Shown: positions 50,358 to 52,563 of the stretch, in pieces | Position numbering within the stretch: the first letter of the stretch is position 1 | How the letters are laid out: the number at the start of each line of letters is the position of its first letter | Translations under genes and position numbers: made by a program | Notes under the pieces: generated by a model | Seen by the model: the letters and a program-made list of their open reading frames with translations, nothing else | What the model was told of the DNA's origin: nothing | Database searches by the model: none | Source of the DNA: Enterococcus phage ZJGS3 | Sequence record: PV523736.1 | Length of the DNA: 64,000 bases | Strand: one strand, 5' to 3'

Positions 50358-51890
50358 TTATTTAAGTGCTTCTTTTACAAAGTCGTATTCTGGTTTATTT
50401 AACACAGACAACATCATTTCTTCTGGGGAAGTAATTTCTCCGCCTAACACTTGTGTTAAGATGTTTGTGGAGAACCCAGATACTAAAGCTGTTCCTTTTT
50501 CGTCAAAACGTACAGGTGTATTATCATGACGAGAGTTTACATTCCAGAATACTACAGATGGTAACTCGTAACCTGCCTGTTCGAACTTAAGTTTTGCTTG
50601 TTCATAGTTAGTGTAACCTGCCACACCTTGGTCAAATTCCATATCGGAAATAATAACGATTTTTGAAGGTAATTCATTTTGTGGTGTGTGGTTTTTCACC
50701 GCAGTAGCTAAAATCAAGTCGAATACTTTTTGTAAATTTGTATTTCTAGCATTGTATGAACATTTATCATAAGCCTTCATCTTATCCATAAGTGTACCTG
50801 ACAATGGTAAATTTACTAAACGAGGTTGTTCAGAAAATACGATGAAATGACCTTTGAATGCGCCACTTAAGCGTTCCGCAGTGTAGATAGCTAAGCCTTC
50901 TGCAACTTCCCAAGGGGTAACATTTTCTGTACCACCCCATGTCATAGAACCAGAAGTATCCGCAACTACAATTGCATTATCTTCAATATCTTTCAACACA
51001 TCGTCCATAGATTTCCATGTTGCTTCCAATGAACGGTCTAATGTTCTGTAGTAACTTCTGCTACCATAAGCCCGAATTACTTCATGAGGTAACATGTTCT
51101 TTGCATTCATTTTTACTTCCCCAGATTCTACTTTAGAAAGTAAATCTTCATATTCGTCTGGCATGTGTAATTGCAAAGCTTTACGGTATTTGAACAATGC
51201 TTTAGAGGATACTTGGTTCAAATCAATCTTATGGTATTCCTTGCTTGCTAACCGAACTTCAATTACATTTAAATAATCACGTAATTTAGCAATCATTTTA
51301 CGATAACGAGTTAGACCTGCTTTACCTTCAAAACCTAAATAGTTAGCAATACGAGCACCTTGATTACGTTTCTTGCTATTTGGAGAACTTACATTAGCTA
51401 ACCATTTACCTAGTAATGATACAGGCTTACCTTCTGACATGTTTTTAATATCAGATGTTAGTTGGTTACCGATGATACGTGCACCTTCTGTATCCACAAA
51501 GTGAATACTACGTTTGTGTGCGTACTCCATAGTTTCAAATAAGTCTGTCCAACGACCAACATATGCCATGTACTCCATTAAAGTAACGATTACTTGCTTG
51601 TTTTGGTTACGACCATCCACTAAGTATTTGATTGCTTCTAGGTAAGCGGAACGTTCACCCAATCCACCTAAACGGATATTACGTAAGTGTACCAAATTGC
51701 GTAATGCTAACTCTGGGTTTTCATCGTAGGCTTTAGCAAACATGTTTCGTACATCTCCTAAACGACCACGCATAGCCCCTGCTTGTGCAAAGAAGTCTAA
51801 GTTAGCGTTTAAAGTTGATGTATAAGTTTTAGCTCCATTTTCTGTAGAACCAACAGTTGTTTCTTCTTTTAGGTTGTCTAAAAATGACAT
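50358..51890 (-). CDS. rsr: Ro60/Rsr-like TROVE plus von Willebrand A domain protein
   Basis: 510 aa; C-terminal vWA with MIDAS IVVADTSGSM and architecture matching Ro60 vWA (VIISDMEFD, PSVVFWNVN); N-terminal LDFFAQAGAMRG resembles Ro60 FLCFGSEGG region; own promoter TTGACT-17-TATAGT (51932-51960). Confidence 0.6.
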   Translation of the reverse strand: MSFLDNLKEETTVGSTENGAKTYTSTLNANLDFFAQAGAMRGRLGDVRNMFAKAYDENPELALRNLVHLRNIRLGGLGERSAYLEAIKYLVDGRNQNKQVIVTLMEYMAYVGRWTDLFETMEYAHKRSIHFVDTEGARIIGNQLTSDIKNMSEGKPVSLLGKWLANVSSPNSKKRNQGARIANYLGFEGKAGLTRYRKMIAKLRDYLNVIEVRLASKEYHKIDLNQVSSKALFKYRKALQLHMPDEYEDLLSKVESGEVKMNAKNMLPHEVIRAYGSRSYYRTLDRSLEATWKSMDDVLKDIEDNAIVVADTSGSMTWGGTENVTPWEVAEGLAIYTAERLSGAFKGHFIVFSEQPRLVNLPLSGTLMDKMKAYDKCSYNARNTNLQKVFDLILATAVKNHTPQNELPSKIVIISDMEFDQGVAGYTNYEQAKLKFEQAGYELPSVVFWNVNSRHDNTPVRFDEKGTALVSGFSTNILTQVLGGEITSPEEMMLSVLNKPEYDFVKEALK

Positions 51891-51931
51891 CTGACATCTC
51901 TCCTTTGTATGGTAATGTTTTATCTAACACC

Positions 51932-51960
51932 ACTATAACATGTAATATTATGTAAGTCAA
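51932..51960 (-). promoter_or_regulatory. promoter of Ro60-like gene
   Basis: Minus strand GTGTTGACTT-17-TATAGT, leader AAAGGAGAGATGTCAGATG. Confidence 0.6.
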
Positions 51961-51972
51961 CACTTTTTGTAA

Positions 51973-52002
51973 ATAAAAAACTCATCCGATTAAGAATGAG
52001 TT
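51973..52002 (-). terminator. terminator of the ncRNA/tRNA-like array transcript
   Basis: AACTCATCCGATTAAGAATGAGTT hairpin followed by U-run on minus strand, immediately upstream of rsr promoter. Confidence 0.55.
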
Positions 52003-52149
52003 TGTATGTAATATCAAGAACCACAGGCTTAATTAAATTCAATAGTTTTAATTTGTTAGTTGATTGCTGTAGGGTTCTTTATGCTCTGGCAACCTAAGAG
52101 GTTAGAGCTATGGCAAAATACCAAAACCTTTTTAATATGTAACAAGAAT

Positions 52150-52236
52150 CTATTTTATACGTTGCTCTACCAACTGAGCTACAGGAGGAATCATCCTCCC
52201 GGCAGGACTCGAACCTGCGACCCACGGCTCCATAGG
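52150..52236 (-). ncRNA. tRNA-like module with permuted connectivity (candidate YrlA-type Y RNA effector domain), copy 1
   Basis: On minus strand: closing helix CTAT..CCGT / ACG..ATAG, then T-arm GCAGGTTCGAGTCCTGC, acceptor-like hairpin GGGAGGA-tgat-TCCTCC closed by a tetraloop, then D-arm GTAGCTCAGTTGGTAGAGC; no anticodon arm. Confidence 0.45.
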
Positions 52237-52334
52237 CAATAAAAATTGCTGTTAGATTCTTTATGTTCCGGCACCCATTAAGGATGGAACTATAGCTATG
52301 CTAAAACCGTTTTATTTATGTAACAAGAACGCAT

Positions 52335-52405
52335 TAACTTTAAGCTTTACCAATTAAGCTATACCACCAAGGGTGGCAGTTGGATTCGAACCAACAACTC
52401 ACATT
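52335..52405 (-). ncRNA. tRNA-like permuted module (candidate Y RNA), copy 2
   Basis: T-arm GTTGGTTCGAATCCAAC, closed acceptor-like hairpin CCACC-ctt-GGTGG, D-arm AGCTTAATTGGTAAAGCT in that 5'-3' order. Confidence 0.45.
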
Positions 52406-52510
52406 TTGCAGATGTATTAGTTTTAAAAGTTTGCTGTGGCGTTCTTTATGTTCCGGCTACCTGTTAGGTTGGAACTATGACATATGTCAAAACCTTTTTA
52501 TCTTGTCTTT

Positions 52511-52539
52511 ATAATAGCATAAGCTATTTAAACTGTCAA
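52511..52539 (-). promoter_or_regulatory. promoter of tRNA-like/repeat ncRNA array
   Basis: Minus strand TTGACA-17-TATTAT. Confidence 0.55.
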
Positions 52540-52563
52540 GTATTAATTTAAATATATTGAAAC

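Follow-up and report, generated by a model that had tools for sequence, protein, structure and literature searches.

Ro60 proteins and their Y RNAs are found in conserved form from bacteria up to humans, and what they do is a matter of continuing debate. A Ro60 carries Y RNA on the outside of its ring and takes up the ends of misfolded RNAs in the central hole. In bacteria, the sequence GNCGAAN0-1G near the 5′ end of the RNAs, which are of the YrlA and YrlB types, has been proposed as the Ro60 site (Chen et al. 2014, PMC4201824); the underlying search was limited to genomes annotated with TROVE proteins. It is already known from that work and from the 2025 study of Thermus phage phiLo (PMC12135203) that phages can carry a Ro60 together with YrlA-like RNAs. 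Also known are the label "Ro-like" on proteins of the DUF2828 family and the Ro60-like fold of one of them, gp130 of the Escherichia coli phage Bas63. The preprint in which gp130 was needed to overcome the "ppl" defence (PMC11482910) noted this fold and guessed that some of the neighbouring annotated tRNAs might be Y RNAs. Here we describe a locus of Enterococcus phage ZJGS3 (PV523736.1), analysed within a stretch of 64,000 nucleotides (nt), hereafter the window. The locus spans 50358-52540, has all its features on the minus strand, and encodes a DUF2828 protein of 510 amino acids (aa) and, upstream of it, an array of three small RNAs. We consider it probable that it specifies a ribonucleoprotein (RNP) on the Ro60/Y-RNA plan, that is, a Ro60-like protein with cognate Y-like RNAs, a sister family by its protein as well as by its RNA motif.

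A Ro60-like architecture in a separate protein family

The 510-aa protein matches Pfam DUF2828 (E 8.5e-27) and DUF7788 (E 4.3e-45), both above the model cut-offs, and over its full length the PHROGs family phrog_850, "RNA-binding protein"; it is thus a member of the DUF2828/DUF7788 family. Its von Willebrand factor A (vWA) region is covered by DUF7788, matches VWA_2 weakly, and has no vWA_Ro60 match. The MIDAS (metal-ion-dependent adhesion site), which the first-pass annotation of this DNA had recognised in the open reading frame (ORF) from the motif DTSGSM, is complete: VVADTSGSM is present, and the residues of the DxSxS...T...D signature (D311, S313, S315, T384, and D416) are invariant among 30 homologues. 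Across the same homologues the helical domain has many invariant Arg and Lys residues, R41, R70, R73, R80, R113, K162, R197, R204, and R236 among them, and is as conserved as the vWA domain.

The same annotation had called the protein a Ro60 (Rsr) orthologue with a TROVE plus vWA layout. Orthology by sequence is ruled out. There was no TROVE (PF05731) match in the protein at E ≤ 1, and neither TROVE nor vWA_Ro60 (PF25045) was matched by it or by 29 relatives even at E ≤ 5 in Pfam. An NCBIfam scan of the protein gave no match, a PDB sequence-profile search returned noise and no Ro60, and hhalign of the DUF2828 family profile against gp220 of mycobacteriophage ET08, a canonical Ro, gave a probability of 14%, confined to the surroundings of the MIDAS and not significant. 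As a positive control, gp220 itself matched TROVE at 4.7e-49 and vWA_Ro60 at 2e-54. A hit to DUF2828/vWA only, named beforehand as the result that would count against orthology, is what the sequence searches returned.

What stands of the proposed layout is the predicted fold. An AlphaFold2 model built with 30 homologues (predicted local distance difference test, pLDDT, 90.7; predicted template-modelling score, pTM, 0.90) shows a helical-repeat ring followed by a vWA domain. When this model was compared with the PDB by Foldseek, ranks 1-8 were all Ro60 (Xenopus, human, Deinococcus Rsr, and phage phiLo), with E 8e-8 to 8e-6 and template-modelling (TM) scores of about 0.6 over the full length. 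Since the sequence tests failed, it is the fold comparison that marks the protein as Ro60-like; judged by its model, it is Ro60-like in architecture, yet it belongs to a separate sequence family.

The family has many members: the number of scored homologues exceeds 7,400, and 697 of 50,697 GenBank phage records contain it by tblastn, including those of cluster L mycobacteriophages, whose members are already annotated as "Ro-like RNA binding protein". The window protein is 31-34% identical to the cluster L and Bas63 homologues (E 1e-70 to 1e-75), with gp130 at 31% (E 1e-75). The family is far commoner in phages than canonical Ro60, and its carriers include therapy-relevant phages of Enterococcus, Listeria, Staphylococcus, Campylobacter, and E. 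coli. The literature mentions of DUF2828 that were found concern eukaryote gene and protein sets only (plant studies and a tardigrade genome); if those proteins share the fold, a Ro60-fold family of unassigned role may exist in eukaryotes too.

The RNA operon and its units

The RNA array lies 47-604 nt upstream of the gene on the same strand, within a promoter-to-terminator unit (52539-51971) that holds three RNA units (Table 1, unit coordinates read on the minus strand) and ORFs of at most 60 aa. Three direct repeats of about 69 nt are spaced by 182 and 185 nt. Every unit is composed of a two-hairpin leader and a closing helix, with an invariant ACAGCAA just 3′ of the 5′ arm of the helix and A-rich sequence before its 3′ arm; helix and motif together are called the handle below. 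In units 1 and 2 the handle carries a permuted tRNA-like body, and in unit 3 a 41-nt AU-rich insert takes the place of this body, as in YrlB.

The first-pass annotation had described an ORF-free transcript with its own promoter and terminator, in which three repeats of about 75 nt alternate with two tRNA-like modules whose acceptor-like stem is closed by a tetraloop. The predicted transcript, both of its signals, and the order T arm, hairpin, D arm stand as described. The repeats are present as well, at their slightly shorter length, but the supposed alternating spacers are leaders with the 5′ arms of closing helices. There are three units rather than two modules, the third repeat opening unit 3, and the hairpins, although closed, have loops of 3 nt in unit 1 and 4-6 nt in unit 2. 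Both the YrlB-like unit 3 and a further permuted tRNA-like RNA at 53428-53525 had been overlooked.

Structure prediction, which had been suggested as a check, bore out the closing helices and the leader (repeat) hairpins, and covariation supports them. Minimum-free-energy folds reproduce the closing helix, T arm, acceptor hairpin, and D arm, with z of -2.7 for unit 1 and -4.2 for unit 2, and ARAGORN calls neither of the two T arm-hairpin-D arm modules (52395-52344 and 52218-52164) a tRNA. Nine copies from ZJGS3, TJE1, EfV12-phi1, and a 74%-identical relative show 93% of leader-hairpin cells paired, with compensatory changes in 10 of 13 pairs. We regard ACAGCAA as single-stranded because its pairing with the nearby strand is not conserved between units.

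A covariance model, R1, was built from eight tRNA-like units of other phages, none from the window. When its source alignment is scored on a four-helix structure drawn by hand, pairing extends to 96% of cells and compensatory changes to 18 of 24 pairs, including 8/8 closing-helix and 7/7 acceptor pairs; the controls weigh more than such raw percentages, and here none of 500 shuffles reached the observed values, with slid controls at 35-49% paired. In the window, R1 finds unit 2 at 90.9 bits (E 8.5e-17) and unit 1 at 84 bits (E 2.5e-15), and unit 3 at 25.3 bits (E 0.005) in a match that is full-length but deletes the tRNA part. Among genuine tRNAs there is no significant score. For unit 3 the helix finder had picked the terminator U tract as the helix partner; this was replaced by GGUUCUU on the basis of the unit alignment and R1.

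The Rfam YrlA model (RF02553) matches unit 2 with 45.9 bits (E 6.6e-9) and unit 1 with 35.8 bits (E 5.6e-6), over the full model length in both. In both, the two ends of the RNA, 5′ and 3′, pair into a stem that encloses the permuted tRNA-like domain, as in YrlA, and the units fall within 4 kb of the gene on its strand, as YrlA does relative to the Ro60 gene, though this gene is Ro60-like by fold only. To this extent the earlier identification as YrlA-type Y RNAs is borne out; it falls short in the gathering score and in the protein-site motif, as discussed below. ACAGCAA holds the position that GNCGAA has in canonical YrlA and YrlB. In the ET08 Y RNAs the 5′ arm of the closing helix is followed by GCCGAG or GCCGAAG, and because ACAGCAA sits in that very place, the ZJGS3 units follow the same plan with a different putative recognition sequence. 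The TROVE-type gp220 of ET08 is accompanied by Y RNAs of the GCCGAA/GCCGAG type and by no ACAGCAA; the motif thus tracks the protein family.

Relatives of ZJGS3 show how variable the arrays can be. EfV12-phi1 (L095, about 98% identical) has a fourth ACAGCAA unit at 593-745 of its locus, between units 1 and 2, whose insert is a T-arm-like hairpin only, and the 74%-identical relative L001 carries the same kind of extra unit; array copy number therefore varies among close relatives (3 vs 4). In gut-metagenome phages, e.g., L007 and L017, the handle module substitutes the anticodon loop of otherwise normal tRNAs, in the order A-rich stretch, 3′ arm of the helix, loop, 5′ arm of the helix, ACAGCAA. 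The 7-bp acceptor stems of these handle tRNAs are open, and some of the tRNAs encode CCA; the Rfam tRNA model matches them at 45-52 bits with an insertion of 50-62 nt. Relative to the YrlA-type arrangement they are circularly permuted. Besides them, the same phages have units with a T arm only, or an anticodon-arm-like hairpin (CAU) with a T arm. L017-type R1 matches that run across two neighbouring tRNA-like genes were rejected as YrlA-like, since each gene closes its own acceptor stem and is unpermuted. A regular expression for a T loop, a short gap, and a D arm also catches adjacent true tRNAs, hence a cross-check with ARAGORN; several anchor-based "acceptor hairpins" formed no hairpin and were discarded.

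The permuted RNA at 53428-53525 lies about 1 kb upstream of the RNA operon, inside the tRNA array. It has a T arm, a closed acceptor-like hairpin of 7-8 bp, and a D arm (fold z -3.3), is conserved in phage Porthos, and contains neither ACAGCAA nor a 5′ GNCGAA. Its membership in the Ro60-like system is uncertain.

Table 1. Features of the ZJGS3 window and handle-bearing units in related phages (window positions unless another genome or locus is named)
Feature	Coordinates	Strand	Basis or remarks
Ro60-like protein gene, 510 aa; N-terminal alpha-helical domain and C-terminal vWA with complete MIDAS	50358-51890	(-)	Pfam DUF2828 + DUF7788; phrog_850
Promoter-like site for protein gene, TTGACT-17-TATAGT + TG	51932-51960	(-)	consensus match only
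Promoter-like site of RNA operon, TTGACA-17-TATTAT, sigma-70-type, extended -10 TG	52511-52539	(-)	consensus match, 11/12
Intrinsic terminator of RNA operon, 10-bp stem (52003-51978) then U tract	51971-52003	(-)	follows unit 3
RNA unit 1, with permuted tRNA-like body	52318-52494	(-)	Rfam YrlA, R1, fold
Unit 1 leader	52494-52450	(-)	
Unit 1 5′ arm AAGAACGC	52446-52439	(-)	
Unit 1 ACAGCAA	52437-52431	(-)	
Unit 1 V-like hairpin	52415-52401	(-)	
Unit 1 T arm	52395-52379	(-)	
Unit 1 acceptor-like hairpin, 7 bp	52378-52362	(-)	
Unit 1 D arm	52359-52344	(-)	
Unit 1 3′ arm GCGUUCUU + tail GUUACAU	52332-52318	(-)	
RNA unit 2, with permuted tRNA-like body	52137-52308	(-)	Rfam YrlA, R1, fold
Unit 2 leader	52308-52265	(-)	
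Unit 2 5′ arm AAGAAUCUA	52261-52253	(-)	
Unit 2 ACAGCAA	52252-52246	(-)	
Unit 2 T arm	52218-52202	(-)	
Unit 2 acceptor-like hairpin, 7-8 bp	52201-52182	(-)	
Unit 2 D arm	52179-52164	(-)	
Unit 2 3′ arm UAGAUUCUU + tail GUUACAU	52152-52137	(-)	
RNA unit 3, short, YrlB-like, without tRNA-like body	52006-52128	(-)	R1 + unit alignment
Unit 3 leader	52128-52083	(-)	
Unit 3 5′ arm AAGAACC	52079-52073	(-)	
Unit 3 ACAGCAA	52070-52064	(-)	
Unit 3 3′ arm GGUUCUU + tail	52022-52006	(-)	
Fourth permuted tRNA-like RNA, between tRNA-Ala and tRNA-Pro; closed by GGACAGUG/CACUGUCC (8 bp) and UAUCCA/UGGAUA (6 bp) around an AUA/CGAA internal loop	53428-53525	(-)	R1 33.1 bits, E 1e-4; Rfam YrlA 28.4 bits, E 2.9e-4
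tmRNA (transfer-messenger RNA), phage-encoded	55255-55605	(-)	Rfam 145 bits; ARAGORN tag peptide AKNEELLAVA
ROOL RNA (RF03087), inside phage tRNA array	61071-61657	(-)	Rfam 260 bits, full length
RtcB RNA ligase	17466-18710	(-)	Pfam E 2e-58
L001 (74%-identical relative)			at least 5 units, two tRNA-like
Listeria A511-type phages			three short units; own promoter and terminator
Cluster L mycobacteriophages JoeDirt, Snenia			order short, tRNA-like, short; immediately past the "Ro-like" gene; 39-40 bits with Rfam YrlA
Staphylococcus phage SEP9			three units
Bacillus phage Thrax2			five units
Campylobacter phage F348			two units
Felixounaviruses humlepung, Bas63 (E. coli, Felix-O1-like)			three units within tRNA array after gene; one tRNA-like
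Bas63 (L094, MZ501086) handle units after gp130, in tRNA-array gaps	22075-22145, ~22690-22770, 22779-22912		GCAGCAA, UCAGCAA, ACAGCAA
Handle-bearing tRNAs, L007	2061-2177, 2393-2515, 2600-2714		
Handle-bearing tRNAs, L017	2118-2233, 2442-2566, 2573-2687		

Linkage of the units to the gene and alternative readings

We define a helix+ACAGCAA family as RNAs with a terminal helix and ACAGCAA 0-3 nt after its 5′ arm, near a DUF2828 gene on the same strand, and found by R1; all three window units have these properties. Loci of homologues at 35-74% identity, 80 on viral contigs and 80 on genome contigs, were compared together with annotated regions of cultured phages. For ACAGC[AT]A the gene strand has 386 occurrences and the other strand 56 in the viral loci, and 293 vs 65 in the genome loci; for helix-closed units the counts are 226 vs 15 and 223 vs 15, respectively. 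Over all of the roughly 170 loci from phages and bacteria, about 90% have the signature beside the gene; at least one closed unit is present in 144 of the 160 loci, and in the genome loci 174 of the 223 gene-strand closed units lie at most 1 kb upstream of the gene. A helix score of at least 7 closes 53% of motif sites, against 15% when the downstream sequence is shuffled and 17% at random positions, and the arms have 171 different sequences among 255 closed units. At E ≤ 0.01, R1 has 146 matches in the viral and phage loci and 58 in the genome loci, every one on the gene strand. In very distant phages and in prophage-like bacterial contigs alike, DUF2828 genes have this module on their own strand, in most cases no more than 1 kb away. 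In Bas63 the actual handle units are found in gaps of the tRNA array, partly under opposite-strand small ORFs; two of these, bas63_0137 and bas63_0138, both probably spurious, cover the tRNA-like unit.

The units might instead have nothing to do with the DUF2828 protein and be stand-alone tRNA-like decoys or processing elements, such as bait for an anticodon nuclease or RNase P, that adjoin the gene by way of an early tRNA region. The gene does usually lie in or beside same-strand tRNA arrays, and the permuted RNA at 53428-53525 occurs inside such an array without ACAGCAA. We nevertheless hold this to be unlikely, given that the units track the gene where the tRNA array is slight or absent (JoeDirt, Snenia, SEP9), that the ACAGCAA units of the window stand only beside the gene and nowhere across the 10-kb tRNA array, and that the motif switches with the protein family.

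Similarly little weight attaches to the idea that the protein acts mainly by its vWA/MIDAS and targets a host protein, such as a defence factor that it would block, with the RNAs accessory or regulatory. Against this, the helical domain, rich in invariant basic residues, is conserved equally to the vWA domain and the RNA partner is nearly universal; what speaks for it is the invariance of the MIDAS motif, the reported action of gp130 against a defence predicted to degrade DNA, and the toxicity of gp53 of LeBron (cluster L) when it is overexpressed alone.

A cis-acting leader that regulates the downstream gene, e.g., through autoregulatory binding of the protein, would explain why, in most metagenomic loci as in the window, the units share the strand of the gene and precede it by at most 1 kb. 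It is, however, highly improbable: a strong terminator and a separate promoter intervene between array and gene, JoeDirt, Snenia, SEP9, humlepung, and Bas63 have their units downstream of the gene, and unit number differs (3 vs 4) among near-identical phages. Finally, that decay of tRNA genes gave rise to the tRNA-like segments and that the repeats are functionless scars of recombination, as a bordering tRNA cluster and the annotated tRNA pseudogenes of relatives might suggest and as the first-pass annotation had allowed, can be dismissed almost entirely in view of the compensatory changes in every helix across phages of different phyla, the closed 7-bp acceptor hairpins of differing sequence, the invariant motif, and the array's own promoter and terminator.

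We thus return to the Ro60/Y-RNA reading, against which several points have to be weighed. There is no sequence-level link between the protein and Ro60, so that it is the predicted fold that would carry common descent. The YrlA gathering score of 69 bits is reached by neither unit 1 nor unit 2, which are absent from a scan at the gathering threshold, and GNCGAA does not occur on either strand between 51900 and 52600. The helix statistics depend in part on arms that were picked for being complementary, and on a structure that came from these very sequences. For a contact between the protein and ACAGCAA, it is their co-occurrence that speaks. The RtcB gene is 32 kb distant, which leaves a link to RNA repair weak in ZJGS3. 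Finally, the "ppl" defence overcome by Bas63 is predicted to degrade DNA (PMC11482910), a setting in which tRNA mimicry is not obviously needed.

On this reading, a primary transcript of about 530 nt would be cut in its AU-rich linkers to give three small RNAs, and the ring protein would bind the handle of each. The variable body, tRNA mimic or plain hairpin, could then serve as an adaptor or a decoy, bringing tRNA-recognising or RNA-degrading host enzymes to the ring or diverting them from their targets; RNase P, the CCA enzyme, polynucleotide phosphorylase (PNPase), and tRNA-directed defence nucleases are candidates. We propose that the tRNA-like bodies engage tRNA enzymes because YrlA of Mycobacterium smegmatis, which has a 7-bp acceptor stem, is an RNase P substrate and receives CCA (PMC4201824). 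The tethering or diverting of host factors is proposed on the precedents of the Ro60-Y RNA-PNPase complex of Deinococcus radiodurans and of phiLo, whose Ro60-Yrl binds host PNPase and damps it (PMC12135203). The net effect may be that phage tRNA-dependent translation is shielded or that a host defence is disarmed, the latter suggested since the Felixounavirus homologue Bas63 gp130 is reported to act against "ppl". Any particular downstream function is, however, doubtful.

It is tempting to go further, though with less confidence than for the ZJGS3 locus itself, and to propose tentatively that DUF2828/DUF7788 proteins and helix+ACAGCAA RNAs make up a distinct and very widespread class of phage RNP that parallels Ro60/Y RNA. 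Its portable handle would have been grafted on tRNA bodies in both permutations, on T-arm-only bodies, and on hairpins, and its members would be counter-defence adaptors tying the ring to tRNA-recognising enzymes. The searchable literature and Rfam 15 contain no RNA partners of DUF2828 proteins, no ACAGCAA handle, no multi-copy arrays of this kind, and no occurrence of both circular permutations on tRNA bodies, although a prior mention is possible; likewise, no RNA partner is defined in the searchable literature for the cluster L, PHROG 850, and Bas63 gp130 proteins. If the proposed working is true, this would be a second, sequence-unrelated family on the Ro60/Y-RNA plan. The presumed recognition motif is simple and invariant, hence easily mutated, and with the reported anti-defence phenotype of one member the role of a Ro-type ring with a tRNA mimic becomes testable in tractable phage-host pairs.

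Genomic surroundings and comparison with known systems

The region 50300-52600 is 100% identical in Enterococcus phages ZJGS4 and GVEsP-1 and 88-99% identical in about 30 Schiekvirus genomes, e.g., EFDG1 and EfV12-phi1. In all these records the gene is labelled "DUF2828 protein", "RNA-binding protein", or "hypothetical protein", and the region upstream of it carries coding-sequence calls and no other annotation. More generally, these RNA genes are unannotated or lie under spurious small ORFs in public phage genomes, an annotation that can now be corrected.

Farther upstream of the RNA operon, on the same strand, ARAGORN finds 24 tRNAs and the tmRNA. It calls no tRNA-Tyr in the window, and the "complete tRNA set" of the first-pass annotation is to that degree overstated; the RtcB ligase named there is confirmed, in no shared operon with the Ro60-like gene, and for the protein-RNA pair the best reading is indeed that of a Ro60/Y-RNA-like system in a phage that is rich in tRNAs and encodes RtcB. 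Two extra matches to the Rfam tRNA model have no ARAGORN call, at 60974-61045 (-) and 57645-57740 (-), with 43 and 33 bits, the second being unusually long. Polynucleotide kinase or RNA ligase genes often co-occur with DUF2828-family relatives (Bas63, LeBron), and ET08, a carrier of canonical Ro60, also has a polynucleotide kinase. Snenia (L082) has, 1.3 kb upstream of its Ro-like gene, a gene at 253-1185 for a band-7-like (SPFH) membrane protein, and a tRNA comes after it; pairs of SPFH proteins and tRNA-like RNAs have been put forward as a further scaffold for RNA repair.

The Ro60/YrlA-YrlB systems of Salmonella, M. smegmatis, and D. radiodurans (PMC4201824) have, like ZJGS3, a ring-plus-vWA protein, with at least two small RNAs no more than a few kb away on the same strand. 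In both cases one RNA type is permuted and tRNA-like and the other a plain hairpin, the protein-site motif comes just past the 5′ arm of the terminal helix, and RtcB is present in the same genome; M. smegmatis YrlA and the ZJGS3 units also share an acceptor stem of 7 bp. The bacterial RNAs are processed from one precursor (PMC4201824), a step that we infer for ZJGS3. Unlike the bacterial systems, ZJGS3 has no TROVE or vWA_Ro60 match, ACAGCAA in the place of GNCGAAN0-1G, YrlA scores below threshold, and an extra two-hairpin leader in each unit, and its carrier is a lytic phage of Firmicutes.

ET08/Bxz1 gp220 with YrlA and phiLo Ro60 with Yrl1 and Yrl2 (PMC12135203) are phage-borne like the ZJGS3 system and have two Y-like RNAs immediately upstream. 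They differ from it in having true TROVE plus vWA_Ro60 proteins and RNAs with a CGAA-type motif. The fold is shared, phiLo Ro60 being among the top structural matches of the ZJGS3 protein. The cluster L, PHROG 850, and Bas63 gp130 proteins (PMC11482910) belong to the same protein family as that of ZJGS3 and have the same RNA design adjoining their genes.

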